Assembly (NCBI GenBank): GCA_964522195.1
Contig: CAZFSV010000001.1
Location: 44,680-108,679, forward strand
From: an uncultured Candidatus Saccharibacteria bacterium
GTDB lineage: Bacteria; Patescibacteriota; Minisyncoccia; Phycocordibacterales; UBA9973
Length of the DNA stretch: 64,000 nucleotides
Direction of reading: 5' to 3'
The notes under the pieces are model-generated. The model had not been told where the DNA came from. It worked only from the letters and a program-made list of their open reading frames with translations, and did no database searches. The position numbers and the translations under genes were made by a program. Below, one piece after another: positions 2,248-25,111 of the stretch. Position 1 is the stretch's first letter. Every line of letters starts with the position of its first letter.

Positions 2248-3682
2248 AAAAACATTTTACTTAACAACAACACTTCCTTATGTAAACGCAGAACTTCATA
2301 TGGGTCATGCTTTAGAATTCATTCGAGCTGATGCTATAGCTCGCTACAAAAAACTTCAAGGTTTTGATGTGTTTTTTAATACTGGTACAGATGAGCATGG
2401 TATTAAAATTTTAGAAAAAGCTAGCGAAGAAGGTTTAGAGGTACAAGAATTTGTAAATCAAAATTTTTTAAAGTTTAAAGAGTCTTTATCTTCTTTTGGT
2501 ATGACTTCTGATTTAAATTTTATTCGTACCACTGATGAGAATCATGTTAAATTAGCACAAGAGTTTTGGAATAGGGTTTATGAGAATGGATATATTTATA
2601 AAAAGAATTACGAGGCGAAATATTGCGTAGGTTGTGAAAGTGAAAAAACTGACAGTGAATTAAATGAAAAAGGTTTTTGTCCAGATCATGATGGACGAGA
2701 ATTACAGACTATCAATGAAGAAAACTACTTTTTCAAATACAGTAGCTTTACTGAGAAGCTTTTAAAATTCTATGAAGAGAATCCTAATTTTATAATTCCA
2801 GAATTTAGATTTAATGAAATGAAAATGTTCGTTTCTCGTGGATTGCAAGATTTTTCTATTTCTAGACTAAAGTCTAAGATGCCTTGGGGAATACCAGTAC
2901 CTAATGATTCGGATCATGTGATGTATGTTTGGTTTGATGCCCTTACTAACTATATCAATACTTTAGATTGGCAAAATAATCCAGAGCAATTTAAAAAGTA
3001 TTGGATAGAAGGCAATCCGACTCAATATTGTGGTAAAGACAATACTCGTTTTCAAGGAGCTATGTGGCAAGCTATGCTTATGGCGGCAGACTTTCCGAAT
3101 TCAAGTCAGATAGTGGTGAACGGTTTTATTACTGGGGATGGAGGAGTGAAGATGAGTAAGACTTTAGGAAACGTTGTGAATCCAAGAGAGATAGCGGAGG
3201 AATATGGAACTGATGCATTAAGGTATTTTATGCTTCGTGAAATTTCTAGTTTTGAAGATAGTCCTTTTACTCGTGAGAGATTTCTTGAATCTTACAATTC
3301 AGGTCTTGCGAATGGTCTAGGGAATTTAACTAGTCGTATTTTAACTTTATCTGAAAAGTATTTGGATCAATGCCCAGAAATTTCTACCGAATCTATCCCT
3401 GAAGAATTTTTTGTACATTTGCAAGTTTTTGATATCAAAAGTGCTTGTGATTTTATATGGGAGAGAATAGGGGATTTAGATAAAAAAATTCAAGAGACAG
3501 AGCCATTCAAGGTTGTAAAAGTTGATTTAGAGAAAGGTAAAGAATTAATTTCTGAGATGGTACTCGAACTTTATAAAATAGCGAGGATGTTAAATCCAAT
3601 AATGCCAGAAAAGTCTGCAAAAATAATTGAATTAATAAAGAGTAACAAAAAACCCGAAATACCTCTTTTTTTAAGGAAATAG
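2225..3682 (+). CDS. metG: Methionyl-tRNA synthetase (short form without C-terminal tRNA-binding domain)
   Basis: Class I aaRS HIGH-like motif (YVNAELHMGHA), KMSKS motif (KMSKTLGNVV), VWFDALTNYI motif and zinc-knuckle insertion CVGCESE...CPDHD typical of MetRS. Confidence 0.8.
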   Translation: MLKKTMTKKTFYLTTTLPYVNAELHMGHALEFIRADAIARYKKLQGFDVFFNTGTDEHGIKILEKASEEGLEVQEFVNQNFLKFKESLSSFGMTSDLNFIRTTDENHVKLAQEFWNRVYENGYIYKKNYEAKYCVGCESEKTDSELNEKGFCPDHDGRELQTINEENYFFKYSSFTEKLLKFYEENPNFIIPEFRFNEMKMFVSRGLQDFSISRLKSKMPWGIPVPNDSDHVMYVWFDALTNYINTLDWQNNPEQFKKYWIEGNPTQYCGKDNTRFQGAMWQAMLMAADFPNSSQIVVNGFITGDGGVKMSKTLGNVVNPREIAEEYGTDALRYFMLREISSFEDSPFTRERFLESYNSGLANGLGNLTSRILTLSEKYLDQCPEISTESIPEEFFVHLQVFDIKSACDFIWERIGDLDKKIQETEPFKVVKVDLEKGKELISEMVLELYKIARMLNPIMPEKSAKIIELIKSNKKPEIPLFLRK

Positions 3683-9621: not shown

Positions 9622-9746
9622 GTATAAATTATATCAGAGAAAATAATTTCTGGCGGTGTATGTGAGTTAAGTACCCACGCTATCAATGTTAATAAGGATA
9701 TTTTAGCATGTTTTTGACTAGGTCACTAAGGCAAGTGAGTCGGTCT

Positions 9747-10283
9747 TCATTTTTTAAAATCCCAGTTGTTTTCGTACTTTTCAGCTAACGGTGTTTTAAT
9801 TTTATACTTTTCTTTACTTACACCTAATCTAAAGTTTCTCATCTCGGTTATTTTAAACTTTTCCTTATTGTTTCTTTTTGTCTTTATCCATAATTCGCGC
9901 TCATCTTTAATATATTTAGCCACAACACTACTTGGCACAATATAAAATTTAAAATTTTCAGTTTTATTAGATATATTCACAAAGCAGTAAAACAAATCAG
10001 GATCTTTTATTGTTTCGTGTTTTTTATGCATTATCCAACCACTAACAGTTTTACCAAAAATTCTTGATTCAGATGTTTGATTTCGGTTATTTTTAAAGTT
10101 AGTTTTTACTTCTAATTTATACATCTTTTTTGTGAATGGATTTGAAACTAAGATGTCTACATTTTTTGTATTACCTAATGTCATATTTGCATCCAACCCT
10201 CGTAGTACAAGTTGTGAAAGCACGGCAAATTCTCCAGCCAGAGAAACAGAATTTCTATTTATTTTTTCTTTATTATTTTCCAT
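9747..10283 (-). CDS. Predicted PD-(D/E)xK nuclease (Hjc/restriction-endonuclease-like fold)
   Basis: N-terminal LAGEFAVLSQLVLRG helix followed by VDILV...YKLEVKT (D...ExK) core; 178 aa. Confidence 0.45.
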   Translation of the reverse strand: MENNKEKINRNSVSLAGEFAVLSQLVLRGLDANMTLGNTKNVDILVSNPFTKKMYKLEVKTNFKNNRNQTSESRIFGKTVSGWIMHKKHETIKDPDLFYCFVNISNKTENFKFYIVPSSVVAKYIKDERELWIKTKRNNKEKFKITEMRNFRLGVSKEKYKIKTPLAEKYENNWDFKK

Positions 10284-10360
10284 ATATAACTACATTTTAA
10301 CACTTTTTATAATAAGTTTAGACCATACCCACATAGACACAATAGACACCTCTTTATAGA

Positions 10361-11419
10361 CTAAGGAAATAATTCTAGATACTTTTCTGGACCCCATGCT
10401 TTCAGTAGTTTTTTGAAGATTTCAATATCTCTATCTTTCAGGGGTTGGTCGTTAAAACCACCATATTGGTTAAGGATGTTTAATTCTCTTTGGGTTTTAT
10501 TTGGATTAGCTTTCCATTCTTTTAATACCCTATAAATCTTTTCGGCTTCAATCTTGGTGTGTTCTTTTAGTTGTTCTTTGATTTGATTTACCTCAATAAG
10601 CATTTGGGCTCCGTTTGGAGTTTCGTATTTATGAAGAAGATTTTCATAAGCATATTTATCCATTTCTTTTGTAGCCACAGGAATTCTTCTTATGTATTTA
10701 CTACTACTGCCATTTGGTAGTAAAAATTCATACTGGCGATATTCGACACCTTCTTCATCTGTGTGAGATGCCCATTCTCTAGCAAAGCCGTTATCTATAT
10801 GATCTTTCATTGCTAGATTTAAGAACTTTTCTTTTCCTTTGGCATCAGAAGCTTCCCAACATTCACAAATTAATTGAGCTCTCATCCAGATAAAGCTCGA
10901 GTGAGCTTTGTTGTCCATTAATAATTCCCAAGCTTTTTTACTTAATTCTTTATCATCACTAATTATTGCCTGTTGAATCATTTTGTATTTATCTTCATAA
11001 GTCATAGCTGAAAACTTTCTGATTGTTTCAATTGCTTTTTCTCCTTCATCTCTAGTTTTCTTTACAAACCTTTCTATCTCAGCAAAAATTCTTTCATTCT
11101 TTTCTTTCTTTTGATCAATTTCAGCTTTTCTATAAAAAATAGTTCCTGTGTCATTAGCTAAATACATCAATGCATCTGGTTTGTAGTCCTTTATTTCTTG
11201 AGCGTAGTATTCACTACCAAAGAAGATGATAATAAATGGATTTATTTCTTCAATTTTAGATTTCCAATTGGTTGGAGTTTGGTTAGAGTAATATACATTT
11301 CCTAAATCATACTTGGAAATTAAATCCTTGTAATAACTATTATCTCTAAGTTCCTTAGCTTTTCTGTTCGCCATTTCAGTCAAAGGAACATATCCTATTA
11401 TTAAAGTATTTATTTCCAT
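10361..11419 (-). CDS. Hypothetical protein (352 aa), middle gene of nuclease cassette
   Basis: Long ORF tightly coupled (2-nt spacer) to upstream gene; no recognisable motif. Confidence 0.45.
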   Translation of the reverse strand: MEINTLIIGYVPLTEMANRKAKELRDNSYYKDLISKYDLGNVYYSNQTPTNWKSKIEEINPFIIIFFGSEYYAQEIKDYKPDALMYLANDTGTIFYRKAEIDQKKEKNERIFAEIERFVKKTRDEGEKAIETIRKFSAMTYEDKYKMIQQAIISDDKELSKKAWELLMDNKAHSSFIWMRAQLICECWEASDAKGKEKFLNLAMKDHIDNGFAREWASHTDEEGVEYRQYEFLLPNGSSSKYIRRIPVATKEMDKYAYENLLHKYETPNGAQMLIEVNQIKEQLKEHTKIEAEKIYRVLKEWKANPNKTQRELNILNQYGGFNDQPLKDRDIEIFKKLLKAWGPEKYLELFP

Positions 11420-11421
11420 AT

Positions 11422-11934
11422 TTATTTAATATCCCATTCAAACAAAATAAAGTTCTCTGGTAGTAAACCTTCTTTCAAAGATTCTTCAAGCCAGAGTATT
11501 TGTGTGTCTTGAATTTTATCTTTCTTTTTTCTTTTGAGTTCTATAAAAAGTATTTGACTATCTTTCCAAACAAGCACATCCCAACAGCCACCAGATTTCC
11601 CAGTTTTCTCTTTTATCTTATTTATCAAATCTTCTTTATCTTTAGGTATTTCTATTGGTTCAACAACTTTAGGTAAACCAATTCTGTATTTTCTTCTGTA
11701 TGAATCCACCCAAACACCGCTCCAACCATTTTCTTCAAAAATACGTAAAACAGCGAGCTCTGCAAAAAGAGGCTCGCTGTTATAATCAATCACGGCTTTA
11801 TTGCCATAAGTATAATCTATGGGTTTTCCTTTCCATTCGTTGAATTCAAAAAAGTATTTCTGAATTGGTATTTGTTTTTTATCTGACAATAAAAATATTT
11901 CATCATCAGTTTGATGTTTTTTAAGAAATTGCAT
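11422..11934 (-). CDS. Predicted VRR-NUC-like PD-(D/E)xK nuclease
   Basis: AELAVLRIFEENGW helix then CWDVLVW...ILFIELKRKK...QDTQILWLEE (D..ExK followed by conserved Q..W), pattern typical of VRR-NUC domains. Confidence 0.4.
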   Translation of the reverse strand: MQFLKKHQTDDEIFLLSDKKQIPIQKYFFEFNEWKGKPIDYTYGNKAVIDYNSEPLFAELAVLRIFEENGWSGVWVDSYRRKYRIGLPKVVEPIEIPKDKEDLINKIKEKTGKSGGCWDVLVWKDSQILFIELKRKKKDKIQDTQILWLEESLKEGLLPENFILFEWDIK

Positions 11935-11936
11935 TG

Positions 11937-12099
11937 CACTCTAGCGGGTTAGTGCAGGCTAGGAACTTTTGTGTATCAAAAGGCTCCCAGCCATTGCGAT
12001 AGACCGAAGTCTACCCGTATAAGTTTCCCTATACGACCCGCTAGAGTGACTCTGACTGGGAGTCCTTTGATCTCTAGCGGGAGATTTGCGACCATGCCT
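11937..12099. other. GC-rich structured repeat element (13-bp inverted repeats cactctagcgggt/acccgctagagtg plus third partial copy)
   Basis: Abrupt GC-rich block in AT-rich DNA. A perfect 13-bp inverted repeat at 11937-11949/12036-12048 encloses ~85 nt with sub-hairpins (tagac-UUCG-gtcta on minus strand, cgtata...tatacg). ctctagcggg recurs at 12071-12082. Confidence 0.4.
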
Positions 12100-12528
12100 C
12101 AAATAAATAAGGTTTAGGTCTTCTATTCAATTGTTAATGAAATTATACCTTATTTTCAAAGGTCCTGCATCTTAGCTTAATCCTTGAGATTTGTGTAGTC
12201 ATTAAAAATCCATCTGTGGATAACTTTTGATTTTTTATTTACACACCTTTTTGTATTAAAACTAGGTCATCTTTCTTAAAAGAAAAATCACAAAAATTCT
12301 ATTTACACTACTGACAGAATTTCTGTGATTTTTTGTTTGCAATAAAAAATATGTGTGTATAAAATACAAATATAACTAAATTGTGAGATTTTAATATCCC
12401 TAAACTGTTTGAGTAAGATCGGTCGATGAAAAGATCAAACTCGGAAGTGGGATATTTTTATTTCAACTTCACTTAATTGAGAACTAAACTGACTACCTAA
12501 ATTGAATTAAAAGCTAATTCAAAATTTT

Positions 12529-13851
12529 ATGAATAAAAATTTAAATATCGTTTATGTTCCAATTAAAAAACTCAAATTATCCGAATACAATCCTCGCAAA
12601 CAAAGCGAAGAGCAAGTAAAAGCTCTCACAGAAAGTATTAGTAGATTTGGTCTTGTCGATCCTGTCGTTTGTAATAGTGCCCCTCAAAGGATGAATGTCC
12701 TAATAGGAGGGCATTTCAGATTGAGGGTTGCTAAAGATCTCGGGTACACAGAAATGCCAGTAGTGTATGTAAATATCTCAGACATTGAAAAGGAAAAGGA
12801 ATTAAATATAAGATTAAATAAAAATGTTGGAGAGTTTGATTATGCTTTGCTTCAAGATTTCAACGAAGAATTCTTGGCAGGGGTAGGTTTTACCAGTGAA
12901 GAATTAGACACTATCTTTGACATAGACCCCAATCCAGAACAATTCAATCTCAAGGAAGAGCTTGAGAAGATGGATATAAAAGTGAAGGTTCAGAAAGGAG
13001 ATATTTATGAGATAGATGGTTCATACCTTATGTGTGGAGATTCAACCATAGAAGCAGATATGCTCAAATTAATGGAAGGTGCTCAAGCAGATATGGTGTG
13101 CACTGACCCGCCATATATTCTTGACTATCTAAAAGGCAAAACCAAACAAAAAGACGGTGTAACTGTCGGCTTTGGTGCCAAGAAGAACAGAAGATATCTT
13201 GAAACCGAATCTTTGCCTGATAACTTTACTGATTTGTGGATGGCGAATGTGCATAAGGTTCAGAAACCTGATTTTTCAATCATCATATTTGAAAATCCAA
13301 AGAACTTACGAATCATTTGGAATGCTCTCGAGAAGTACTGGAAATATCGTAACACGATTGTGTGGCATGTGCCAAACAGAATGCAAGGTTTTTCTGCAAA
13401 GATGAAATTCTTTAACAAGCACGATATAGCATTAGTCGGTAGCACAGATAGCGTGACCATCAACCTCGAGCCAGAAGAAGAGATATTTCAGAATGAATAT
13501 GAGAATGCTCTCTTTGCTTCATCTGGCAAACCACATTGGGAATCTTATGGTAAAGGTAAAAAGATATGCCCAACGGACTTTATCGAACACATCGCCGCTG
13601 ATAAAAAATCCTCAGGACAAGATATTATCTTTGGAACAAAACCACTTGAACTTTTGATTCCATATATCAAGGTTCTAACTACACGAGGTCAATTAGTACT
13701 TGAGCCATTTGGAGGCTCTGGATCTACTCTTATAGCTTCTTTAAAGCTAGGTCGAAAATGCAGAATAATGGAAAAGTCTCCTGTCTATACAGAAGTGATT
13801 ATCAAAAGATGGGAAAAGCACACAGGCAAAAAGGTTACCAAAATTAATTAA
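12529..13851 (+). CDS. ParB-like nuclease domain fused to beta-class N6A/N4C DNA methyltransferase (orphan MTase, phage/plasmid type)
   Basis: N-terminal ParB/Srx-like region (LIGGHFRLRVAKDLG); MTase motif IV DPPY (MVCTDPPYIL) preceding motif I FxGxG (LEPFGGSGSTLIA) = beta permutation. Confidence 0.8.
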   Translation: MNKNLNIVYVPIKKLKLSEYNPRKQSEEQVKALTESISRFGLVDPVVCNSAPQRMNVLIGGHFRLRVAKDLGYTEMPVVYVNISDIEKEKELNIRLNKNVGEFDYALLQDFNEEFLAGVGFTSEELDTIFDIDPNPEQFNLKEELEKMDIKVKVQKGDIYEIDGSYLMCGDSTIEADMLKLMEGAQADMVCTDPPYILDYLKGKTKQKDGVTVGFGAKKNRRYLETESLPDNFTDLWMANVHKVQKPDFSIIIFENPKNLRIIWNALEKYWKYRNTIVWHVPNRMQGFSAKMKFFNKHDIALVGSTDSVTINLEPEEEIFQNEYENALFASSGKPHWESYGKGKKICPTDFIEHIAADKKSSGQDIIFGTKPLELLIPYIKVLTTRGQLVLEPFGGSGSTLIASLKLGRKCRIMEKSPVYTEVIIKRWEKHTGKKVTKIN

Positions 13852-13859
13852 TCATCCAT

Positions 13860-14543
13860 ATGGCTAAAGACAAAACATCAAGACATGAATTGAAACGAAA
13901 CAGAGAACTAAAAGGAAATCTTGAATTAGCCAAGGGTAGTATATCCAGAGAGAGTAAATCTTTCTCTAGGTATGACCCTGATGAATTCATTACTAAAGGT
14001 AAACCAAACATACCCAAAGACATTCCAGAAAAAGAAAGAAAAAGATTAGAAAAACTTGCAGAAGAAACTGAGAAGAATAAAAAAGCTTTGGTATCACAAT
14101 TGCGAAAAACTCCCATAGCTCAGATAGCTTGTGAAAAGACTGGAATAGGCAGATCTACTTATTACAAATGGCGAGCAAATGACTTCATTTTTGCTCGTGT
14201 CGCTGATAAAGCGATGGATGCAGGTAGATTCTTCATCAATGATATGGCTGAATCAAAACTAATCAAACTCATTCAAGATAGTAATATGCAAGCCATTAGT
14301 TTATGGCTAAGACATAACCACCCTAGATACACATCTTTAGGTAGGATTATTAAAGACTTTGAAATTCTAACTGAAACTCTCTCAACAGAAGAGAAGAATG
14401 TTGCAGAACAAATGCTCTCAGAACTGGTGATGAATAAAGCAAAGTTAAACTATTCGAGCAAAGATTTGAAGGAGTATTACAACAAAGAAGAGAGTAAGAA
14501 TCCTGAAGATGAAAAAAGAATGCGGGGGTTTGATGAGGATTAA
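13860..14543 (+). CDS. HTH-domain protein (terminase-small-subunit/transposase-HTH-like), unknown function
   Basis: Basic N-terminus, putative HTH IACEKTGIGRSTYYKWRAND; 9 nt downstream of ParB-MTase. Confidence 0.4.
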   Translation: MAKDKTSRHELKRNRELKGNLELAKGSISRESKSFSRYDPDEFITKGKPNIPKDIPEKERKRLEKLAEETEKNKKALVSQLRKTPIAQIACEKTGIGRSTYYKWRANDFIFARVADKAMDAGRFFINDMAESKLIKLIQDSNMQAISLWLRHNHPRYTSLGRIIKDFEILTETLSTEEKNVAEQMLSELVMNKAKLNYSSKDLKEYYNKEESKNPEDEKRMRGFDED

Positions 14544-14552
14544 TGGTTAACA

Positions 14553-14580
14553 AAAATACCAGCTACGGCTGGTATTTTTT
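14553..14580. terminator. Bidirectional rho-independent terminator between convergent genes
   Basis: aaaaataccagc-tacg-gctggtatttttt perfect hairpin flanked by A-run/T-run. Confidence 0.75.
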
Positions 14581-14595
14581 ATGATGGTTTAGGTT

Positions 14596-17500
14596 TTACC
14601 TTCGATATTTAAGTTTACGGTTGTCAAATGCCGGTAATGTTCCTTCAAGTATATCGACAACGTACTTATTGATTTTTGGATTTTCAATAGAACCCGAATA
14701 AAAATCGAAGTCGTTCTTATTCTTTTTGTCTATGTGTACGTGGATTATCTGTTCCGCGTCTGCCACAACTGCAAGATTTGGGTTGTGGGTGACCATAATA
14801 ATTTGACGACGCTTCTTTGCTTTTTTAAGAAATGTCACAAGGATTTCGTATACACTTTTGTTATCGAGGTTATCTTCCGGTTGGTCTATGACAAGTGGTA
14901 TATCCCGACGATCAAGCATTAGATAGAAGATAAGCAGAAGACCACCCCTTTCGCCCGGCGACAATTCACTAAGGTCTTTCTCATCGACTTTCAGGTCATA
15001 CTTAGTCTCCAAGTAATCGAATCCAAAAATATAATCATATAGATCGACGGGTTCCTTGCCTTGCTTCATCTGCTTGAACACACCACGAGCCTTATTTTCG
15101 TTAGCAGGTAGACCAACTCTTTTATCAGTATCGATATTGGCCGTCACGGAGTCGAGGAAAGACATTACCATTTTCTCATTCTGCCAATTGGTTACTTCCT
15201 CAACAATTCTTTTAAGCACACTTTTACCATCCTCTGTTCCGTAAAAACTACCTTTAACCGCCTGATTAACAAATCTAAAGAATTCATCGAAAAATGTTTT
15301 GTCGAAGCGAAGACTCGCTTCTATAGAGATGTCGTAGTCGCCTAACTCTTCGCTATATTTTTCAATTTCTCCGTCGATTGATTTTTTCACCGAGTCGTAG
15401 AAGGTAGCCAACGTCACCTTCTTGGCGAAGATTTCCTTGCTGACTCTTGTCCGTTCTTCCTTGGCAGTGGTCAGTTCCGCAGGGTAAGTTGATGTAATCG
15501 CAACAAGTTCCTTCGTAAGCCAGTTAAGCGTATCCGCGACTGGGGTTGTATCATCGCCAACCAATTCTTTCAGTTGATTTTCCCACTTTTCCTTATCTTT
15601 CAGATAGGCTTGGTATTCCTGATTCGGTTTATCAAGCCGGTCAACGATTTCTTTTCTCTGTTTAGACAACAGCGCCTGTTTGCAGACTAGGCTTTTTCCC
15701 AACGCAAGTTTCTTGTCAGCATCATTCAGACCTAATGTCTCAATATCGGCTTCAGTTTTGAGGAGTTCATTTATCTCGGCGAGTCGGTCCTCATTGGTTT
15801 TGACAAAATCATCGATTTTTTTGGAATCAAACGATACTGTGACAATGTCATCGAATTTTATGTCTGCAGCCGTAAGTTGCTCTCGGTATTTAGTCTTTAA
15901 ACCCGTAATACCCATGACTTGGCGAGAGATTGCCAGTTTTATTTGTCCAAAGTCCTGAACTTTCTTTGCAACGGACGCCTGCTCCGTCTTAATTGCAGTG
16001 ATTGATGTGGCTAACGTGGTCAATTCAGTTTCTATGGGCGTAATCTCAGACACACCTCCCGTCGCAACCTCAGTGGCTTGTGCTGGTTTTGGGGCGTCTT
16101 TTGGTTTCAGCTTGTTATGGGTATCTACCTCCTCTTCCTTGATCCGCTTCTTTTCCTCAATCGACTTCTTGTAATCAGGCGCGAGTTTTCGTTCAGCGGC
16201 AACAACCTTGTTGTTTGCCTCATGCAATGAGTCCTTAGCTAATTTTATATCCTCCTCTATCTGACTTGAGAGATAGGTGATGAGTTCCTCTAAGGTCGTC
16301 TTTTCAAATCGGTCCTTTTCTTCAACGTACCCAAAAATGACCTCATTTAATTTTCCCCTGAACTCATCATCTTCTATATTCGCACAAATCTTCTCAAGAT
16401 ATTTTTGGGGTAGGTACTCGACCTTTTCAGAAAGGGTTTTGTCGACTTCTGCATCCAGAAGGATTCCGTCCGGCTCTCCCGCATGCCAATGTAATTCACC
16501 AGAAAAATTCGAAGCGCACCGCCCTTTGAGAAATTTGTCTTTATTCAAGAAGGAGAATAATTCTTCGGATCGACCGTTCGTACCGTCATACTTCTGGTTA
16601 TGACTATTGCCAAACAACCCCACTATGTCCGTGACAGCACTTTTACCACTTCCTTTGTTACCAATGATGGCAACAAGTTCGGGATTCAGGTCGATCTTTT
16701 CGTCTTTAAACCATGTGCCGTGTTTTCCGTCGTACCCTTCAATCTGGTCAATATGTAGAGTTTTTATGTACTTAGTCTGATTGGTACGCACGCGATCCAA
16801 AATGCCAGGCTCATCTCCTATGAATATTCGTTCATCAGGTTCATACGTGATGTACTTGAGACCCTCAAACGTTAGGTCCGCCTTAACCCAGGTGATGTCT
16901 CTTTCTATCACGGTCAGATTTTCGGCGTCCGTTTTTATGATCCTTTTGCCAAGCGCATTTTCAAGATCATTAAAAGAGTGAGCGTCACTACCGCATGCGA
17001 CAGGCTTGGGTACCGAACCTTCGTAACGCTCACCGAGAAAGAAATCCTTATCATCAGCACGTCCGAAAAATACTGGGCAAACATCGTCTATAGTTTTCGC
17101 GTACTCCGTGTGTCTGCCCTCATGTTGCGGCGGGCGGATTCCACCGTAACCATTTGCTACACCAAAAACTAGAAAAACATCGCGATTTCCGAATGTCTTC
17201 TTTAGTGAGTTAAGAATTGCATCACTAGTAACAATTGCCTTATCATATCCGATGCGCGCCAAGTCAGTTTGTACGCATTTAGATTTTGAACCGTCTACAT
17301 TAACATTTCTTAGCTCAATACCGCTCAGAAATCTTTCGATTTCCTCTTTTGTTGCCTCATCTGAGAAAACAATGTGAATATTTATGTGATCGTTCTCTTT
17401 ATTTTTATCTTCAAGTCTAAATTCAATATTTGGAAAAAATATTTTCTTTGAATCTGGATATTTTGTCTTAAATTTTTCAATAAAAGTGAAGTAACCATCC

Positions 17501-17688
17501 GCAGAGAAATAATCGGTGATACCAAAGGCATATACATCAGATTCTTCCAACTTTCTACAATATTCATCCCACACGTCTTTACCAGAAGAAACAGCGTACT
17601 GGTCATTTAGTTTTGTGGTTGGTGGATGAATATGAAGATCCCACTTTCTCCATACTGAACCTATTCTAAACTCGTCTTTCTGAACCAT
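14596..17688 (-). CDS. PHP-domain phosphoesterase fused to SMC/RecN-like ABC ATPase with central coiled-coil (PplA-like defence protein)
   Basis: N-terminal PHP motifs (WDLHIHPP HxH, ...ACGSDAHS). Walker A AIIGNKGSGKS. ~450-aa coiled-coil/low-complexity spacer. ABC signature LSPGERGG, Walker B VIDQPEDNLD, H-loop IIMVTHNP. 2-nt spacer to upstream res gene. Confidence 0.7.
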   Translation of the reverse strand: MVQKDEFRIGSVWRKWDLHIHPPTTKLNDQYAVSSGKDVWDEYCRKLEESDVYAFGITDYFSADGYFTFIEKFKTKYPDSKKIFFPNIEFRLEDKNKENDHINIHIVFSDEATKEEIERFLSGIELRNVNVDGSKSKCVQTDLARIGYDKAIVTSDAILNSLKKTFGNRDVFLVFGVANGYGGIRPPQHEGRHTEYAKTIDDVCPVFFGRADDKDFFLGERYEGSVPKPVACGSDAHSFNDLENALGKRIIKTDAENLTVIERDITWVKADLTFEGLKYITYEPDERIFIGDEPGILDRVRTNQTKYIKTLHIDQIEGYDGKHGTWFKDEKIDLNPELVAIIGNKGSGKSAVTDIVGLFGNSHNQKYDGTNGRSEELFSFLNKDKFLKGRCASNFSGELHWHAGEPDGILLDAEVDKTLSEKVEYLPQKYLEKICANIEDDEFRGKLNEVIFGYVEEKDRFEKTTLEELITYLSSQIEEDIKLAKDSLHEANNKVVAAERKLAPDYKKSIEEKKRIKEEEVDTHNKLKPKDAPKPAQATEVATGGVSEITPIETELTTLATSITAIKTEQASVAKKVQDFGQIKLAISRQVMGITGLKTKYREQLTAADIKFDDIVTVSFDSKKIDDFVKTNEDRLAEINELLKTEADIETLGLNDADKKLALGKSLVCKQALLSKQRKEIVDRLDKPNQEYQAYLKDKEKWENQLKELVGDDTTPVADTLNWLTKELVAITSTYPAELTTAKEERTRVSKEIFAKKVTLATFYDSVKKSIDGEIEKYSEELGDYDISIEASLRFDKTFFDEFFRFVNQAVKGSFYGTEDGKSVLKRIVEEVTNWQNEKMVMSFLDSVTANIDTDKRVGLPANENKARGVFKQMKQGKEPVDLYDYIFGFDYLETKYDLKVDEKDLSELSPGERGGLLLIFYLMLDRRDIPLVIDQPEDNLDNKSVYEILVTFLKKAKKRRQIIMVTHNPNLAVVADAEQIIHVHIDKKNKNDFDFYSGSIENPKINKYVVDILEGTLPAFDNRKLKYRR

Positions 17689-17690
17689 GA

Positions 17691-19961
17691 TTATTTCAAT
17701 TCAAAAAATTCCCATCCTTTCATCGACGAGTCGAAAGAATATTTTGCGTTTTTGTTTATCTTCCATCCATTTGGCCCATCTTGGACAGCTATACCACCGG
17801 CAAAACCTTTTTTGCCCTTTAGCCATGCTTGAAGTGCCTCGGCTTTGTACTTTGTATCGTTGCTCTCCGCAGTAATTCCGCCTTTAGTATCAACAATGTA
17901 GAGAGTGTCTTTGGTCTGTACAATCCAGTCGGGATAGAAAAGTTTTTCCTTGTTTTCATCCTGATTGTAGTAAGAGATAGAGAAGTATTCGCTTCCCGAG
18001 TCGCCGTTTTTGTACCACCACACTACGCCCCTAGATGATTCGAGGAATTTTACAAACGCTTCCTCGTTAGTTCGTCCTGCATAATCTTTTTCTATCCAAA
18101 ACGGCTCCATAGCTGACTTCTTAACAGAAAGTGCTTCGTATTGATCAGTGAAGAACAAAGCTTCGCGTGGGATTTCAATATTCTCAACGCGCTTTGCGCG
18201 TGCAGATTTTTTGTTTACTTCTTGTTCACGAACAGGTCGATATTCAAGAAGTGCATCACCAATTACCGGAGCAAGTGCACCAGATGGACTCAAGAGATCG
18301 TTTACGATGATTTTATAGGCATCAATACGCTCCGCCTTAAGCTTATTCATTAGCCAAATATTTAAAGCTGTTTTCAGCTTTCCCCACGAACGCTCAGGAG
18401 CAAATTTTCTGTTCTCGTCTGTCTGTTTTGCAATAATTTTGAAGCAGAGGAGGTTATAGAGTCGCTCGAGATCGTGTCGAGACATTTCCTGCTCATGACT
18501 TCCTCCTTCTGCAAGAAGCTCCTTAGTAAAGTTGTCGTAATCATCAATTTCTACCCCAACGATCAAGCCGTTTGTGACTTTCGGCTTCAAATCCATTTTC
18601 TTTACATCTAGTTTTTTATCCGCAACTTTCTTGAATGTTTCTTGGAATGTATCGCCAAGGTCGTTATAGTCGGCACGAGTCATAAAGACCGATTCAAGCT
18701 TGATCGGCTTTATGTTTTTCTTGCGATAGCTTCCGTTTATTGCAGGGCGGTTTTCTGTCTTTGATTTTGCATACTCGGCAAGTACCTCGTTTCGCTTGTA
18801 GTTTGTATAGAGATAACCCAAATTAAGTTCAGGGTGTGCGAAATGCACGCCAAACGGCATTCGCAAGATGCGCCCTACAGTCTGAATTGCAAAAGTAGGA
18901 TTTTTGATTTCGCGGAACATCACAAGCACGCCCGCGCGCGGACAGTCCCAGCCAGTCGCGGCGGCTTGCTTGAAAAGCAAGAACGAAACCGGAGAATTAC
19001 TCTTTTCCAAGTCTTCAAGATTTTCCTTTTCTTTAGAAAGCCATACTGCAATTTCGTTTCCTTTTACACCCTTACGCTTTAGATATTCCAAAACAATTTG
19101 CTGTTTAGTTGTACCACCTGTTTCTTTTGTTGCTTGGTCGTCATTTGGTAGCTGTATCAGTACAAGCGGATTTACTTCTGCTTTTATTTCTTTATAGAGA
19201 GAAACGAGCTCCTCGCGCTTTGAATACGCAAGCTCTAAAAGCATTTCATCTTGATCAAGTTTCTTGATTGCTTTCTGACCCAAATCTTCCTCAGTTTGAA
19301 AAACAATTTTTTCCTTAATGAGTCCCGCTTCCACAACTTCAGCTCGCTTTACCTCGATATATCCGGCAACATCAGCACGGGTAGGGATGTATTTCGGCGT
19401 AGCCGACACGCGAATAGTGATTTTGGGTTTAACAACCCCATTTATAACTTCGTCCGCAAGTTCTGTATCAGAGCCAATATGCTCCTCGTCAATAATCACG
19501 ACAATTTTTCTTCCGTCCTCGTGGGTTTCGGCGATAAAATTATCAAAAGTTAGTCCTTGTTCATTATCTCGGCGAAGCTTTCGGCTATCTTTCGTCTTAC
19601 CTTTGATTTTTTGCCAGTTTATGAAAAAGACATTGTTCTTCTTTAGCTTTCCGCGCGAAAGATCGTTAAGATCAATCAAATCAAGCTCGGATGCTCCTCC
19701 ATAGTATTCAAAAAGTTTCTTTTTACTTTGTTCGTATGATTCTTCGCTAAACGAGAACCAAACAAATGCCACATCATTTCCCTCAAAACGAGGATCGCTC
19801 ACAATATCGCGTAAAAATTGCGCAAGCATGATTGTCTTACCCGAGCCAGTAGGCGATTTAAAGACGACGGGTGTATTTTCGTTCGGTAATTTCCACAGCG
19901 AAAGAAACTCATTTTTGAGATTCGATACTGCGGTTTCTTGAAATGGTTTTAGTGCAAACAT
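17691..19961 (-). CDS. res: Type III restriction enzyme Res subunit (SF2 helicase + PD-(D/E)xK endonuclease)
   Basis: Helicase motifs I FKSPTGSGKT and II VIIDEEH; C-terminal endonuclease motif YPDWIVQTKDTLYIVDTKGG (PD...DxK). Confidence 0.75.
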   Translation of the reverse strand: MFALKPFQETAVSNLKNEFLSLWKLPNENTPVVFKSPTGSGKTIMLAQFLRDIVSDPRFEGNDVAFVWFSFSEESYEQSKKKLFEYYGGASELDLIDLNDLSRGKLKKNNVFFINWQKIKGKTKDSRKLRRDNEQGLTFDNFIAETHEDGRKIVVIIDEEHIGSDTELADEVINGVVKPKITIRVSATPKYIPTRADVAGYIEVKRAEVVEAGLIKEKIVFQTEEDLGQKAIKKLDQDEMLLELAYSKREELVSLYKEIKAEVNPLVLIQLPNDDQATKETGGTTKQQIVLEYLKRKGVKGNEIAVWLSKEKENLEDLEKSNSPVSFLLFKQAAATGWDCPRAGVLVMFREIKNPTFAIQTVGRILRMPFGVHFAHPELNLGYLYTNYKRNEVLAEYAKSKTENRPAINGSYRKKNIKPIKLESVFMTRADYNDLGDTFQETFKKVADKKLDVKKMDLKPKVTNGLIVGVEIDDYDNFTKELLAEGGSHEQEMSRHDLERLYNLLCFKIIAKQTDENRKFAPERSWGKLKTALNIWLMNKLKAERIDAYKIIVNDLLSPSGALAPVIGDALLEYRPVREQEVNKKSARAKRVENIEIPREALFFTDQYEALSVKKSAMEPFWIEKDYAGRTNEEAFVKFLESSRGVVWWYKNGDSGSEYFSISYYNQDENKEKLFYPDWIVQTKDTLYIVDTKGGITAESNDTKYKAEALQAWLKGKKGFAGGIAVQDGPNGWKINKNAKYSFDSSMKGWEFFELK

Positions 19962-19965
19962 AGTT

Positions 19966-21651
19966 TTATAGGCGATTTATTTCTTTGTATACCTCAAGGA
20001 TCGGCTCGGGAATATCCTCGACTCGGATATGTGCGGATGAATATTCACCCTTGTATTCGTTCTTGCCCCAACTGAAAATATACAGAGCGACAGGTAAACT
20101 TTTCTTTTCAAGTTTTTCAATCAATTCTGCAAGCTTTGATTTGTCCTCCTTGAAATAGATTGCTGTCATTCGTCCGCGACCTTCAAAAATCTGCCACCAT
20201 TCATTTTTTTCAACTTCATTGAGAGTATCTTCACGGACAGCAATCATTTCTCCGGCTTGATAGGTAACACGAATTTTTGCTTCGTCAGGTATCTTCTGAA
20301 GATGTTCAATCTCAACAATATCTGTTTTGTAGTATGCAAGATTTCCTCCAAGCCCTTCAATTTTTTCACCAGTTTTTAAATTTTTATAGCCACTCATTAC
20401 TCGTTTTACGCGTTCGTAAGTCACTTCCTTGCAAATATTGTTTTCATTGTTAGTGCAAAGAATAAATCTACGATGACCACCGTCCTCTTTATTTATCTCG
20501 AGTACAGCATGACCAGTAGTACCAGATCCAGCAAAAAAGTCTACAACAAGAGCGTTGCGCCTATTTTTTGTTGTGGCAATTAAACACTCTTTTGTGTTGT
20601 AAAGTGATTTCGGAAATGGGAATTTTGTATCGATTATTTGATTTACCAAGCTTGAACCATAAGTATTAGAGTTATGTTTTGAATCCACCCATACTGTTTT
20701 GTATCTGTATTGACTCTTATATCTGTTGATTACAAGTTCACCTTTATTTTCTTCACACTTTAGTTCTCCCCAAATATCCTCAACTGTTTGTCTTGCAAAT
20801 CGCCACTTTCTTTCCACACCATTTCCATCAATGGGGTAAATTTCAACATTCCCATCTTTTCTTTTCTCGTTTGCGGATTTCGGATGTATCTCATCTTGAA
20901 GAACATCGCCAAATCCAATAATTTTCTTTGTTTTAGGATCAACAATAATTGAATAGAAACAATTTCGTGCTGTGTTCCTCTTAGATTCATCGCCACCCCA
21001 GTCTCTTAATGGGGTGGGTTTAACATCTTCTCTTTCTACGCGAGAAATATATTCCTTTCCTTTCGGAAAAATGAAATATGCATATTCGTGGGTATATGAG
21101 AAATTATCTCCTTGAATTCCACCTGGATTATGAATGATGGTTACGCAGACCTTTTCATGGGTAGGAAAAATATCCTCGAGCAAGAGACCTAGTGTCTCTT
21201 GCTCGTTGTGATCAATAGCACAAATTAAAATTCCATCTTGATTAAGAAGTTCCCTTGCGAGCTTCAATCTGTGACTCATAAAAGACAACCATTTGCTATG
21301 ACGATATTCGTCTTCCTTGTCTACATAGTCGTTGTTGTATCTCCAGTTTTTCGCTCCTGTGTTGTAGGGTGGATCAATGTAAATAACATCAACCTTCTTT
21401 TTATGAGTATAAACAAGAGCTGAAAGTGCATGATAGTTATCACCCTCAATCAGAAGATTATAGATTTCATTATCTGACTTCTTAACCTTAAGGTTTTTTA
21501 TTTGTCTCAATACAGGTATATTTTTTTGACCATCTACAACGACATCTTCTGGTTTTTCCTCCCAGATTAAGCCGTACTTGCGATCTTTTTTCAGACGTCT
21601 CAGTTCTGATTTCAAATCCGCTATCTCTTTTTGTAAATCTTTTTCAGACAT
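19966..21651 (-). CDS. mod: Type III R-M Mod subunit, N6-adenine DNA methyltransferase (beta class)
   Basis: Motif IV IYIDPPYNTG upstream of motif I VVDFFAGSGTTGHA; central variable TRD; 4 nt upstream of res. Confidence 0.8.
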   Translation of the reverse strand: MSEKDLQKEIADLKSELRRLKKDRKYGLIWEEKPEDVVVDGQKNIPVLRQIKNLKVKKSDNEIYNLLIEGDNYHALSALVYTHKKKVDVIYIDPPYNTGAKNWRYNNDYVDKEDEYRHSKWLSFMSHRLKLARELLNQDGILICAIDHNEQETLGLLLEDIFPTHEKVCVTIIHNPGGIQGDNFSYTHEYAYFIFPKGKEYISRVEREDVKPTPLRDWGGDESKRNTARNCFYSIIVDPKTKKIIGFGDVLQDEIHPKSANEKRKDGNVEIYPIDGNGVERKWRFARQTVEDIWGELKCEENKGELVINRYKSQYRYKTVWVDSKHNSNTYGSSLVNQIIDTKFPFPKSLYNTKECLIATTKNRRNALVVDFFAGSGTTGHAVLEINKEDGGHRRFILCTNNENNICKEVTYERVKRVMSGYKNLKTGEKIEGLGGNLAYYKTDIVEIEHLQKIPDEAKIRVTYQAGEMIAVREDTLNEVEKNEWWQIFEGRGRMTAIYFKEDKSKLAELIEKLEKKSLPVALYIFSWGKNEYKGEYSSAHIRVEDIPEPILEVYKEINRL

Positions 21652-21653
21652 AA

Positions 21654-21980
21654 TTATTTTCTTTTTACTATTTCTTCTCCTAAAGGACCTTCAATAAGTT
21701 TAACAGTTTCCTTTATAAACTGTTCCCATGTATACACTTCTTTGTACCACAATAAAACAACGTCGGTTCGATGCTTTAGAATTCTCAGAAATTTTTGCCA
21801 TGTAAATCCTACCGGTTTTAGTTCATCTTTCCACGCTTCCCATAAATATTTAGGGAGCTGATTTCCGTACCACACATTGAGATTTTCCCATTTAATAGAA
21901 GTATCTTTTGTGGTCATTTTTTCAATTGAACGAATCCAATCTTTTACATGCTGGGGTTCTTTTGGGGTAAAAAGTTTCAT
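21654..21980 (-). CDS. Hypothetical Trp-rich small protein, first gene of mod-res-PHP/ATPase operon
   Basis: 108-aa ORF ending 2 nt before mod start; no recognisable motif. Confidence 0.4.
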   Translation of the reverse strand: MKLFTPKEPQHVKDWIRSIEKMTTKDTSIKWENLNVWYGNQLPKYLWEAWKDELKPVGFTWQKFLRILKHRTDVVLLWYKEVYTWEQFIKETVKLIEGPLGEEIVKRK

Positions 21981-22088
21981 ATCCTAAGTATATGGTATAT
22001 TAAAAGAAAAGTAAAGTAATAAGATTACCAACATCTAGCAAATGAGACGCTCTGGACTCCTTGAGGGATATGCGTCATTCATTAGGGT

Positions 22089-23366
22089 ATGGAAACAGAA
22101 AAAGTAAAATATTGCTTATATGCAAGAAAATCAACTGAATCAGAAGAAAGACAGGTCCTTTCTATAGATTCACAGATTAAAGAGATGCTTCAATTAGCAG
22201 ATAGAGAGGGGTTAGAGATTGTAACGATGAAGCGTGAAAGCCACAGCGCCAAGGAAACAGGTCAAAGACCAGTCTTTAACGAAATAATAGAAGAATTAAG
22301 GGCTGGTAAGTTTAATGGAATACTCACATGGGCACCTGACCGTATTAGTAGAAATGCGGGAGATTTGGGAAAGATAGTGGACCTGATGGATGCAGGAAAA
22401 CTGAAAGAAATACGAACCTTTGGGCAAAAGTTTTCAAACAATCCGAATGAGAAGTTTCTTCTGATGATTTTAGGAAGTCAGGCAAAACTTGAGAATGATA
22501 ATAGGGGTATCAATGTAAAGCGAGGATTACGAACAAGGGTTGAGATGGGTCTCTGGCCAGGAGTGGCACCGCTCGGATATCTTAATCAAAGAGATTTAGA
22601 TAAAAAGTGTCAGCTAGTAGTAGACACACTTCGTGCTCCAATAGTGAAAAAGATATTTGAAAAAGTAGCTTATGAAAAAATGAGTGGTAGGAAAATATAT
22701 AACTGGCTCAGGTTTGAAGCGAATTTCTATACTCGAGGCAATAAACCCTTAACTCTCGCAGGAGTATATAGAATTCTAGAGAGTCCTTTTTATTATGGAA
22801 TGTTTGAATATCCGAAAGATAGCAGTAATTGGTATCAAGGTAAGCATAATCCATTAATTACAAAAGAATTATTTGAACAAGCTCAGGCACAACTGAAGAG
22901 AGATAATATACAAAGAGAGAATAAAGAATTCGCATTTACCAAACTATTTACTTGCGGATATTGTGAAAGTGGAATATCTGCAGAAGAGAAATGGAAACAA
23001 CTAAAAGATGGTACACATACAAAATACATATACTATTCGTGCAGTAGATCCCGAGATAGAAATTGTAAAAATAAATATATTCGTGAAGAGGAACTTATTA
23101 CTGAAATGTTGAATATATTAGATAAAGTAAATATAAATGAGCTTGGTATGAGGCAGAAGCTAGAAGACGAAATTACAAGATTTAATATATTCCAAAGGTC
23201 AGTACTTGGTGCGACAGATAAAATTAAAAACAACACAGAAGCAGATATACGAAACTATGCTAAGTATATTCTAAAAGAAGGGATGGTAAGTGAGAAAAGA
23301 GAATTGTTAGCCAACCTCAGAAGCAGGATTGTATATAAGGATAAGAAGCTAACACTAATAGAATAA
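22089..23366 (+). CDS. Large serine recombinase (resolvase/integrase family)
   Basis: N-terminal catalytic domain YARKSTESEERQ...SIDSQ, recombinase domain, Cys-rich zinc ribbon CGYCESG...YSCSRSRDRNC, C-terminal coiled coil. Confidence 0.85.
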   Translation: METEKVKYCLYARKSTESEERQVLSIDSQIKEMLQLADREGLEIVTMKRESHSAKETGQRPVFNEIIEELRAGKFNGILTWAPDRISRNAGDLGKIVDLMDAGKLKEIRTFGQKFSNNPNEKFLLMILGSQAKLENDNRGINVKRGLRTRVEMGLWPGVAPLGYLNQRDLDKKCQLVVDTLRAPIVKKIFEKVAYEKMSGRKIYNWLRFEANFYTRGNKPLTLAGVYRILESPFYYGMFEYPKDSSNWYQGKHNPLITKELFEQAQAQLKRDNIQRENKEFAFTKLFTCGYCESGISAEEKWKQLKDGTHTKYIYYSCSRSRDRNCKNKYIREEELITEMLNILDKVNINELGMRQKLEDEITRFNIFQRSVLGATDKIKNNTEADIRNYAKYILKEGMVSEKRELLANLRSRIVYKDKKLTLIE

Positions 23367-23373
23367 TTTATTT

Positions 23374-24762: not shown

Positions 24763-24776
24763 GCTTATATTTTACC

Positions 24777-24806
24777 AAAAAAAAGCAGATTAATCTGCTG
24801 TTTTTT
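24777..24806. terminator. Bidirectional rho-independent terminator
   Basis: aaaaaaaagcagat-taa-tctgctgtttttt perfect hairpin. Confidence 0.7.
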
Positions 24807-24865
24807 GGTACGTGAGTCACACCGCTTGCACGGGCAAGTGGGTTGACTCCGATACTAAATTGTGT

Positions 24866-24955
24866 TGGCGGAGAGAGCGAGATTCGAACTCGCGGTCCTG
24901 TTTAAGGGACGACGGTTTAGTAAACCGTTGATTTAAACCACTCATCCATCTCTCC
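24866..24955 (-). tRNA. Type II (long variable arm) tRNA, Ser-like, apparent anticodon ACU
   Basis: GGAGAGATGGATGAGTGGTTTAAATCAACGGTTTACTAAACCGTCGTCCCTTAAACAGGACCGCGAGTTCGAATCTCGCTCTCTCCGCCA. Acceptor 7 bp, T-arm GCGAG/TTCGAAT/CTCGC, G73, encoded CCA, 3-bp D-stem typical of tRNA-Ser. Anticodon loop TTACTAA reads A34-C35-U36. Confidence 0.65.
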
Positions 24956-25021
24956 ATGAAACACAATTAATAATATAGCATAAAATGGAAAAATAGTAAT
25001 AATATGCTAAAGTATTTCTAT

Positions 25022-25111
25022 GGAGCCGTGGGAGAGTGGTCTAATCTACCTCTTTGCTAAAGAGGCAGGCTGTAAAAGGCCTCGAGGGTTCGAATCCCTC
25101 CGGCTCCGCCA
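25022..25111 (+). tRNA. tRNA-Ser(GCU)
   Basis: GGAGCCGTGGGAGAGTGG...CCTCT-TTGCTAA-AGAGG anticodon arm (GCU), long variable arm, T-arm AGGGTTCGAATCCCT, G73, CCA encoded. Confidence 0.85.

Follow-up and report, generated by a model that had tools for sequence, protein, structure and literature searches.

The 64,000-nucleotide (nt) stretch of DNA from an uncultured Candidatus Saccharibacteria bacterium that was analysed here, referred to throughout as the window, carries a gene for a VRR-NUC-like nuclease on its minus strand, and a short block of GC-rich repeats stands directly in front of the start codon of this gene. On the far side of the block, at the distance of about 430 bp that a preliminary description of the locus had stated, a gene with ParB_N and N6_N4_Mtase domains starts at 12529 on the plus strand. 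The GC content is 0.42-0.51 over 11900-12100, compared with 0.20-0.34 in the intergenic region at 12100-12600 and 0.25-0.27 just inside the nuclease gene (11800-11950), and this profile confirms a GC-rich block within AT-rich DNA. A repeat finder showed that cactctagcgggt (11937-11949) and acccgctagagtg (12036-12048) are perfect 13-nt complements lying 86 nt apart, which bears out the inverted repeat first described. The third repeat copy, ctctagcggg, is also real, but it occupies 12072-12081, and the earlier bounds of 12071-12082 took in one flanking base too many on each side. The element does abut the nuclease gene: the repeat arm ends at 11937 and the ATG begins at 11934, which leaves 2 nt between them. 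With at most one mismatch allowed, the 10-mer CCCGCTAGAG occurs at three sites in the window, all of them inside the element; 0.57 sites are expected from shuffled sequences and 2 of 100 shuffles reach three. A second inverted repeat of 19 nt (11975-11993 and 12053-12071, 84% complementary), which the preliminary description did not include, turned out to be the best-conserved helix of the element. The minus strand from 12130 to 11920 folds with -84.3 kcal/mol (z = -7.7), a value equalled by none of 200 shuffles, and the structured unit reaches 12120, past the coordinates first given. A reading of the block as small open reading frames (ORFs of 47-48 amino acids (aa) on both strands) was dismissed, as the pattern of conservation is one of base pairs.

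A small structured noncoding RNA (ncRNA) had been among the candidates put forward for the block, and this was right in kind. The Infernal scan against Rfam that the preliminary description had proposed (Rfam 15) gave a single non-tRNA match in the window, LOOT RNA (RF03000), on the minus strand at 12120-11998. The match reaches 76.6 bits, where the gathering score is 46.4 (E = 1.2e-12, cmscan), and covers model positions 1-121 of 121. All four LOOT hairpins, the internal loop of P1 (CCUAAA...GCAUGG) and the GAAA loop of P3 are present in the alignment to the Rfam consensus, and the UUCG-closed minus-strand stem noticed earlier is hairpin P4 (12015-11998, loop 12008-12005). Among 53 distinct relatives, P1, P2, P3 and P4 all show covariation. 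With this match above threshold, the window element belongs to the LOOT RNA family as a full-length member. In the Rfam alignment the strands of P2 are the third repeat copy and the 12037-12046 arm. The Rfam model stops at 11998, and 63 nt remain before the ATG of the nuclease gene, including the arm 11937-11949.

The stretch between LOOT and the ATG is also conserved among related loci. These loci were gathered via the nuclease protein (29 from genomes, 80 from metagenomes and 1 viral), and two home-built covariance models, R1 and R2, describe the whole unit over 192 positions. R1 and R2 score the leader in the window, 11929-12122, at 158.6 and 153 bits, in each case as a full-length and single match, and they match at full length through the ATG in 63-64 related places. 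Of the 87 loci for which 300 nt or more of upstream sequence are available, 58 have the whole unit of about 190 nt. It is present in 55 of the 69 loci with a protein at least 54% identical and in 3 of the 18 loci with more distant homologues, several of which are from other phyla. The part known to Rfam (12120-11998) is the first two thirds of this conserved unit, which runs about 65 nt further, to the start codon; the Rfam model lacks both a 19-bp helix, b:b', and the second partner, a2, of the strand a'. The parts of the leader in the window are as follows.

12142-12147, minus strand: probable -10 box TATAAT (cross-locus conservation)
11929-12122, minus strand: full leader, from the LOOT core through a 3' extension of about 65 nt to the start codon (R1 and R2 models)
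11998-12120, minus strand: LOOT core (RF03000) with hairpins P1 to P4 (cmscan, 76.6 bits)
12090-12120, minus strand: P1 hairpin with the internal loop CCUAAA (12118-12113) / CAUGG (12096-12092) (covariation)
Between P1 and a, minus strand: A-rich linker
12072-12081, minus strand: a, the 5' arm of P2, CCCGCUAGAG (pairs with a' in all 51 distinct leaders)
12053-12071, minus strand: b, the 5' inner half and loop of P2, AUCAAAGGACUCCCAGUCA (19 pairs to b')
12052-12048, minus strand: c, a short segment
12036-12048, minus strand: a', the switching strand and 3' arm of P2, CACUCUAGCGGGU (complementary to a over 10 bp and to a2 over 13 bp)
12016-12035, minus strand: P3 hairpin with a GAAA loop at 12027-12024 (covariation)
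11998-12015, minus strand: P4 hairpin with a UUCG loop at 12008-12005 (covariation)
11975-11993, minus strand: b', the 3' partner of b, UGGCUGGGAGCCUUUUGAU, outside the Rfam model (RNAalifold and pair counts)
11957-11992, minus strand: P5 hairpin, formed by b' with a downstream segment d and excluding b:b' (minimum-free-energy fold)
Between P5 and a2, minus strand: A-rich linker
11937-11949, minus strand: a2, the second copy of a, ACCCGCUAGAGUG, 2 nt before the ATG (CA, then AUG) (a':a2 covariation)
11934-11932, minus strand: start codon of the nuclease gene

Strand a' has two partners, and in 49 of the 51 distinct leaders it pairs perfectly with both of them, with a over 8-12 bp and with a2 over 8-13 bp; the a:a' helix consists of 8-12 perfect Watson-Crick pairs in all 51. 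At least nine arm sequences occur (CCCGCUAGAG, CCGUCCAAGG, CCGUCCAAAG, CGCGACGAAC, CGCAACGAAC, CGCGACAAAC, CCUUCCCAG, CCGUGCAAGG and CGUAGGACA), and all three copies, a, a' and a2, change together across these variants. Changes on both sides are seen in 9 of the 11 modelled pairs of a':a2, and 96-98% of the alignment cells are paired, in an alignment that was fitted to the a':a2 fold. In a test that uses no alignment, the a:a' duplex has an energy of -18.7 kcal/mol between cognate strands and -5.6 kcal/mol between non-cognate strands, and the corresponding values for a':a2 are -20.8 and -9.3 kcal/mol. The a':a2 helix is longer than the identity between a and a2 (13 versus 10 nt in the window and 12 versus 9 nt in the relative L125), so that it is complementarity to a' that is conserved and not mere repetition. 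This helix ends 0-5 nt before the start codon, and an ORF of at least 100 codons follows in every leader. When either pairing was forced, the folds with a:a' and with a':a2 differed by a mean of 0.85 kcal/mol and a':a2 was favoured in 27 of 48 leaders; the two pairings of a' are nearly isoenergetic. Computationally, the leader has what defines a riboswitch-type expression platform, namely mutually exclusive pairings of which one would occlude the initiation region. It also has the position of a riboswitch: in the window, as in 58 of 87 related loci, it is on the same strand as the gene and ends at its start codon.

These patterns bear on the suggestion that the block acts as DNA, be it a miniature inverted-repeat transposable element (MITE) bounded by 13-bp terminal inverted repeats, a group of binding sites for the ParB-like protein or the neighbouring helix-turn-helix (HTH) protein, or an att or oriT site of the island. 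Three copies of a 10-bp sequence do lie within 145 bp, beside a ParB-domain gene and in an apparent island, and in two loci of identical sequence (L139, at about 2940-3000, and L196) a deletion did arise through the direct copies a and a2. In these two loci the deletion between a and a2 left the 3' half of P1, one copy of the repeat and the ATG, with the nuclease gene kept and the switch gone. However, the arm sequence differs completely between lineages while the complementarity is kept, the complementarity of a' to a2 exceeds the identity of a and a2, the tolerated G-U pairs are sensible only as RNA of one strand and the element matches a curated RNA covariance model. We therefore regard action at the DNA level as extremely improbable. 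A MITE would not be expected as the single syntenic copy that is found in the window and at each related locus, always upstream of the same gene and without a match in phage records, and the inverted repeats lie within a larger conserved unit, in which they are the arms of alternative RNA helices. A parS or HTH operator cluster was rejected because base pairing is conserved between lineages and the repeat (at least nine variants) is not, and because the G-U pairs and the strand asymmetry indicate RNA of the gene-sense strand. The att or oriT reading falls on the same two points, conservation of base pairing rather than of sequence and G-U pairs that fit the gene-sense strand only.

A further helix was found in the extended leader. 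RNAalifold, run unguided, chose the long-range helix b:b'. Of its 19 pairs, 13 have changed on both sides, and up to four pair types occur per column. The proportion of paired cells is 93.8% in an alignment fitted to b:b' and 93.7% in an alignment from a model that does not contain it, and 10 columns in the core of the helix have no unpaired cell among the 52 distinct sequences with letters there. It is the best-supported helix of the leader, yet it is outside the Rfam model. The frequent G-U pairs in b:b' would be A-C mismatches on the other strand, and the structure is therefore that of the RNA of the gene-sense strand. The alternative duplex b':d, which forms P5, is found in nearly all relatives (-13.3 kcal/mol cognate, -9.9 kcal/mol non-cognate). 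Helix b:b' is incompatible with P5 and with the inner stem of P2 (b:c). Strand b follows directly on a, and a' comes before b', so that a:a' crosses the full b:b' helix, and it is probably not possible for the two to coexist. There is a crossing between b:b' and a':a2 too, and these helices might form together as a pseudoknot.

The strength of b:b' could be taken to mean that the leader has one static fold, possibly pseudoknotted or multimeric (b:b' together with a':a2, or a domain-swapped dimer with b:b' in trans), which would hold translation down constitutively, stabilise the mRNA or offer a platform to a protein. If pseudoknots are allowed, b:b' with a':a2 would be the most stable arrangement, by about 10 kcal/mol beyond the nested folds, where the value is a crude sum of energies as ViennaRNA does not score pseudoknots, and a permanently low level of translation is plausible for a nuclease. 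However, a:a' covaries as strongly as a':a2, which means that both pairings of a' are under selection, and these pairings are close to equal in energy. Strand b' is likewise selected with b and, more weakly, with d, and a single fold cannot use both. A static fold is on this evidence rather unlikely.

The position of LOOT relative to the nuclease gene bears on a different possibility, which is that LOOT is a free-standing, trans-acting small RNA (sRNA) that happens to lie beside the nuclease gene, with a2 and the downstream sequence outside its function. This would agree with Rfam, in which LOOT is typed as 'Gene; sRNA' (the family is shown in the Rfam 14 paper, PMC7779021), and with the compact, GC-rich, four-hairpin form of the core. 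Among the 29 genome loci, Rfam LOOT lies directly upstream of a VRR-NUC homologue and on the same strand in 16, and in a 17th, L148, it is on the opposite strand. The L148 element (2524-2720, minus strand) is a LOOT core with b:b' and without a2 that is divergent from the VRR-NUC homologue and is followed after about 50 nt by a different ORF, and it is the sole case seen of LOOT in another arrangement. Against a free-standing sRNA, about 60 loci show the same strand and order with respect to the gene, a2 is fixed at 0-5 nt from the start codon, the 63 nt past the Rfam model are conserved and both b:b' and a':a2 join the core to this downstream segment, and a terminator scan of the minus strand gave no terminator-like site between P4 and the ATG. 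We consider this explanation quite improbable.

The same scan bears on transcriptional control, in which b:b' with its U-run (GCCUUUUGAU) would be an attenuator or terminator and P5 or P2 the antiterminator. In its favour, most relatives have a U-rich 3' end of b' (UUUUG or UUUUUG), immediately preceded by a GC-rich part of b:b'. However, the U-run is only 4-5 nt long, is interrupted and is paired to a covarying A-run in b (AU 36, GC 16 and GU 1 in one column), and the supposed hairpin would enclose about 75 nt comprising a', P3 and P4, unlike intrinsic terminators. The terminator scan was negative here on this strand, and a2 and its fixed distance from the AUG would be left unexplained. Control of this kind is very unlikely.

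The reading that we prefer is that LOOT is transcribed as the 5' leader of the nuclease mRNA and acts in cis as a bistable translational switch, and this is probably correct. Strand a' would alternate between a, closing P2, and a2, in a helix ending 2 nt before the AUG, and b' would alternate between b and d, the latter giving hairpin P5. In the open state P2 (a:a') and P5 would be formed, a2 and the AUG would be single-stranded and ribosomes could initiate. In the closed state b:b' would pull P2 apart and a' would clamp a2, placing the initiation region in a 10-13-bp GC-rich helix. The a2 copy beside the ATG would be the segment whose pairing with a' masks the initiation region, and the closed state should be strongly inhibitory because the mRNAs are otherwise AU-rich and lack a Shine-Dalgarno (SD) sequence. 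Docking of the GAAA loop of P3 into the internal loop of P1 would clamp across P2 and favour the open state. The analysis shows that the element belongs to LOOT, that its position and strand are conserved, that a:a', a':a2, b:b', P1, P3 and P4 covary and that the two pairings of a' are close in calculated stability; the on/off action on translation, the state that is 'on', the tetraloop contact and the promoter are what we infer.

Several observations weigh against a bistable switch in the nuclease leader. The sample was gathered through the nuclease, and it tells that the gene usually has LOOT; the converse, that LOOT always occurs with this gene, is not implied. Alignments A3 and A5 were fitted to the covariance models, and the pair counts for the modelled helices are inflated as a result. 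About 14 close nuclease homologues have no LOOT, the leaders L141 and L211 have no a2, and the L148 core stands in front of another gene. The inner stem of P2 (b:c) is weakly supported, with 72.6% of cells paired and duplex energies of -6.5 kcal/mol (cognate) and -5.1 kcal/mol (non-cognate), and the support for P5 is moderate. The long helix b:b' may sterically exclude a:a', or it may coexist with a:a' or with a':a2 as a pseudoknot. We also infer the promoter, the 3' end of the leader and its co-transcription with the nuclease gene. Finally, the leader has few conserved unpaired nucleotides, which argues against a classical small-molecule riboswitch.

The trigger of such a switch could be a protein (the nuclease itself, the HTH protein or the ParB-methyltransferase), a small ligand, Mg2+ or, as for hok mRNA, simply co-transcriptional timing. 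A protein effector or a hok-type co-transcriptional timer is at least as likely as a small ligand, and the regulated gene is a nuclease and not a metabolic or transport gene. In its fullest form the proposal is that LOOT is the sensor half of a bistable leader with two coupled, mutually exclusive helix pairs and a tetraloop-receptor clamp, and not a trans-acting sRNA; that it gates a structure-specific nuclease in the HTH/ParB-methyltransferase/nuclease core of defence-island-like elements across Patescibacteria; and that it answers a protein or ligand signal. This full statement is, in our estimate, evenly poised between being right and being wrong.

The outer pairs of P1 covary and are 97.5% paired, and the halves of its receptor-like loop are CCUAAA/CAUGG in 23 relatives and CCUAAC/UAUGG in 20, with a U-A pair in place of the flanking C-G pair in a few. 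All 8 pairs of P3 covary (95.7% of cells paired), and its loop is GAAA in 50 of 50 leaders. In P4, 5 of the 6 pairs covary and the loop varies among relatives (GAAA, GCAA, UUCG, CACG or GUAA). The internal loop of P1 resembles the 11-nt GAAA-tetraloop receptor, CCUAAG/UAUGG. The tertiary motif of a GAAA tetraloop with this receptor (CCUAAG...UAUGG) was reportedly described by Costa and Michel in 1995. The likeness is near and not exact, as the position of the G-U wobble in the receptor is A/C or C/U here. Docking of the P3 GAAA loop into the receptor-like loop of P1, clamping across P2, is a prediction drawn from these loop sequences.

Upstream of P1 a TAnnAT hexamer is conserved at a distance of 27-33 nt in 46 loci, with a TGn extension where the hexamer is imperfect, and this suggests that the leader transcript starts about 15 nt before P1. 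A sigma-70 scan of the region around the leader did no better than chance in this AT-rich DNA, and the promoter call instead rests on the cross-locus conservation of the -10 box. Of the 46 ORF starts in the window almost none has an SD sequence, and at many of them a TATAAT stands 7-10 nt ahead of the ATG. This points to mRNAs with very short leaders, or none, in this genome of 31% GC. As SD sequences and long leaders are nearly absent from the window, a GC-rich leader of 190 nt is exceptional, and a helix right beside the AUG should affect initiation strongly. The preliminary description was correct that the element leaves no room for a canonical ribosome-binding site, but this is not an anomaly among genes that nearly all do without an SD sequence.

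LOOT comes from the ZWD metagenomic collection of Weinberg and Breaker (Weinberg et al. 2017, PMC5737381), the main text of which, as far as it is searchable, contains no passage on LOOT. Elsewhere in the searchable literature its only mentions are an example figure, an instance of 'cross-covariation' and an entry in a table that lists improved structures, and no function, gene association or host lineage is stated for it there, the 2017 supplement being outside that scope. The family itself was already known; what the analysis adds is the extended switch architecture, which is apparently undescribed, together with the assignment of a gene and a lineage.

In principle, the LOOT leader resembles both the platforms of translational riboswitches and the hok pathway, and it is a member of neither. 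Like riboswitch platforms (SD, anti-SD and anti-anti-SD), it has a structured 5' domain followed by a strand, a', that pairs in cis either inside the domain or with the initiation region. It differs from them in that the masked a2 is not a conserved SD sequence, in that few conserved unpaired nucleotides are available for a pocket, and in the second coupled pair of alternatives (b:b' versus P5), which is unusual. Gultyaev, Franch and Gerdes are said to have revealed metastable and fold-back structures in hok mRNA in 1997, from three-way covariations in the hok/sok family. The LOOT leader is similar in its evidence, one strand covarying with two alternative partners, and in that exclusive long-range pairings within the mRNA would govern the translation of a toxic or dangerous product. 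However, there is no sequence or structural homology to hok, the product is a nuclease and not a membrane toxin, and the LOOT leader is not known to have an antisense RNA partner or a 3' processing step. Two other classes of RNA were rejected as candidates, a type III toxin-antitoxin RNA because there is a single unit and no tandem array, and a retron ncRNA because there is no reverse transcriptase in the neighbourhood.

LOOT has been one of many 'orphan' structured RNAs that are known only from metagenomes and have neither a host nor a function. A host among Patescibacteria, a fixed position as nuclease leader and a helix and an arm that Rfam missed turn it into a testable regulatory element, and about 70 nt could be added to the Rfam family, along with a change of its type. 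The explicit design, with three-way covariation and near-equal stabilities, would make it well suited to the study of RNA switches in organisms where SD sequences and long leaders are mostly missing. If the proposal is true, LOOT would be among the first regulatory RNAs with an assigned role in Patescibacteria and would represent a new class of switch. The leader may also explain how a potentially self-damaging nuclease that is paired with a divergent DNA methyltransferase is restrained.

The nuclease gene and the island in which it appears to lie contain the following features.

11422-11934, minus strand: VRR-NUC-like PD-(D/E)xK nuclease, 170 aa (Pfam VRR_NUC)
12529-13851, plus strand: ParB_N and N6_N4 DNA methyltransferase (Pfam, PHROGs and PADLOC)
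13860-14543, plus strand: HTH protein resembling a terminase small subunit (Pfam, PHROGs and PADLOC)
14596-17688: OLD/AAA-like ATPase, in the island
17691-21651: type III restriction enzyme and methylase, in the island
22089-23366: large serine recombinase, in the island
23374-24762: Shedu SduA_C, in the island
24866-25111: divergent pair of tRNA-Ser genes, at the island border

The VRR_NUC match is weak but above threshold (24.1 bits against a Pfam cut-off of 23.8), PHROGs gave only a marginal match to Holliday-junction resolvases and PADLOC had no model that matched the nuclease. More than 200 homologues were found at about 60% identity, many of them from Patescibacteria genome bins, and the conserved residues are D119, E132, K134 and Q145. 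The best fold matches of an AF2 model (pLDDT 90.9) are the VRR-NUC domain of FAN1 and Hjc resolvases, both weak, and Foldseek against the PDB matched only the C-terminal nuclease core, leaving an N-terminal domain of about 100 aa without a match. VRR-NUC and Hjc relatives bind branched nucleic acids. The nuclease in the window lacks about 11 codons that follow Met-Gln in most homologues (alignment A1). In several loci (L126, L135, L160, L168, L175 and L215) an additional domain or ORF of about 150 aa, which begins M-Q-F-x-Y-P-E-D-R-E-F-F, stands N-terminally between the leader and the nuclease domain.

The arrangement around the leader is conserved. The ParB_N-methyltransferase gene stands beside LOOT in 47 loci and the HTH gene in 41, in the same order, with these two genes on one strand and LOOT and the nuclease gene divergent on the other. 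This pairing of a nuclease with a methyltransferase invites a restriction-modification-like reading, in which translation of the nuclease would need restraint. The genes downstream of the nuclease vary between genomes and are mostly concerned with restriction-modification or defence (C5 methylase with NgoFVII, Type ISP, Z1, NurA with HerA, D12 methylase and serine recombinase). In the window a 352-aa ORF (10361-11419, minus strand) begins 2 nt downstream of the nuclease gene; it has no match in Pfam, PHROGs or PADLOC, and its homologues follow the nuclease in 6-7 other loci. Judging from its gene content, the region from about 9.7 to 24.9 kb (about 9700-25111) looks like an integrated defence island, outside which there are housekeeping genes (RecG, malic enzyme, type IV pilus and LigA).

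A phage origin of the module is not supported by the collections searched. The leader (blastn) and the nuclease protein (tblastn) had no match among 50,697 phage records, and the module is on one IMG/VR contig only (L230). A loose DNA pattern, CCTAAACC N6-26 GGCATGG, had also been used on viral contigs, and the 120 stretches that it returned (L001-L120) were discarded as chance matches by a second-motif filter.

In leaders of the CCGTCCAA type (L127, L133, L143, L165, L173 and others) and the CCGUCCAA type there is an extra copy of a at +7 to +15 of the ORF, so that a' matches both sides of the AUG. This repeat within the ORF corresponds to the codons T/S-V-Q, and the same codons are present in L193, which has no LOOT. 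The shared codons hint that the repeat originated from the 5' end of the nuclease gene. In six other loci without LOOT (L124, L129, L161, L170, L171 and L187) a tRNA gene (...CCAGCTTATG...) ends about 7 nt ahead of the nuclease ORF. The start codon in those six loci is thus abutted by another kind of structured RNA, and the boundary of the island may lie at the tRNA.

The intergenic region 12121-12528 is unusually long for these genomes (about 320-430 nt across loci) and is conserved in blocks (alignment A4). One block, TTACAAYTGAATA, lies between the -10 box and P1, and a short covarying inverted repeat overlaps the -10 box (ACCTT...AAGGT in the window). Further blocks are CTAAGCTAGGRTG and CTTCGCAA, and a hairpin with the loop GATCGACC is located at about 12418-12437 of the window. 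These blocks may be operators or promoter elements of the divergent genes, or additional RNA structure. DnaA-box-like sequences, TTATCCACA / TTATACACA, occur on the minus strand at 12215-12223 and 12354-12362. Across the whole window, motifs of this kind show no enrichment (5 matches where 2.8 are expected). At the 12215-12223 site the alignment column is GTTATCCACAG-like in most related loci, and several relatives have an inverted copy, CTGTGGATAAC. At the other end of the island, one of the two tRNA-Ser genes (24866-24955, minus strand) has the unusual anticodon ACT, with A at position 34, and stands back-to-back with tRNA-Ser(GCT).

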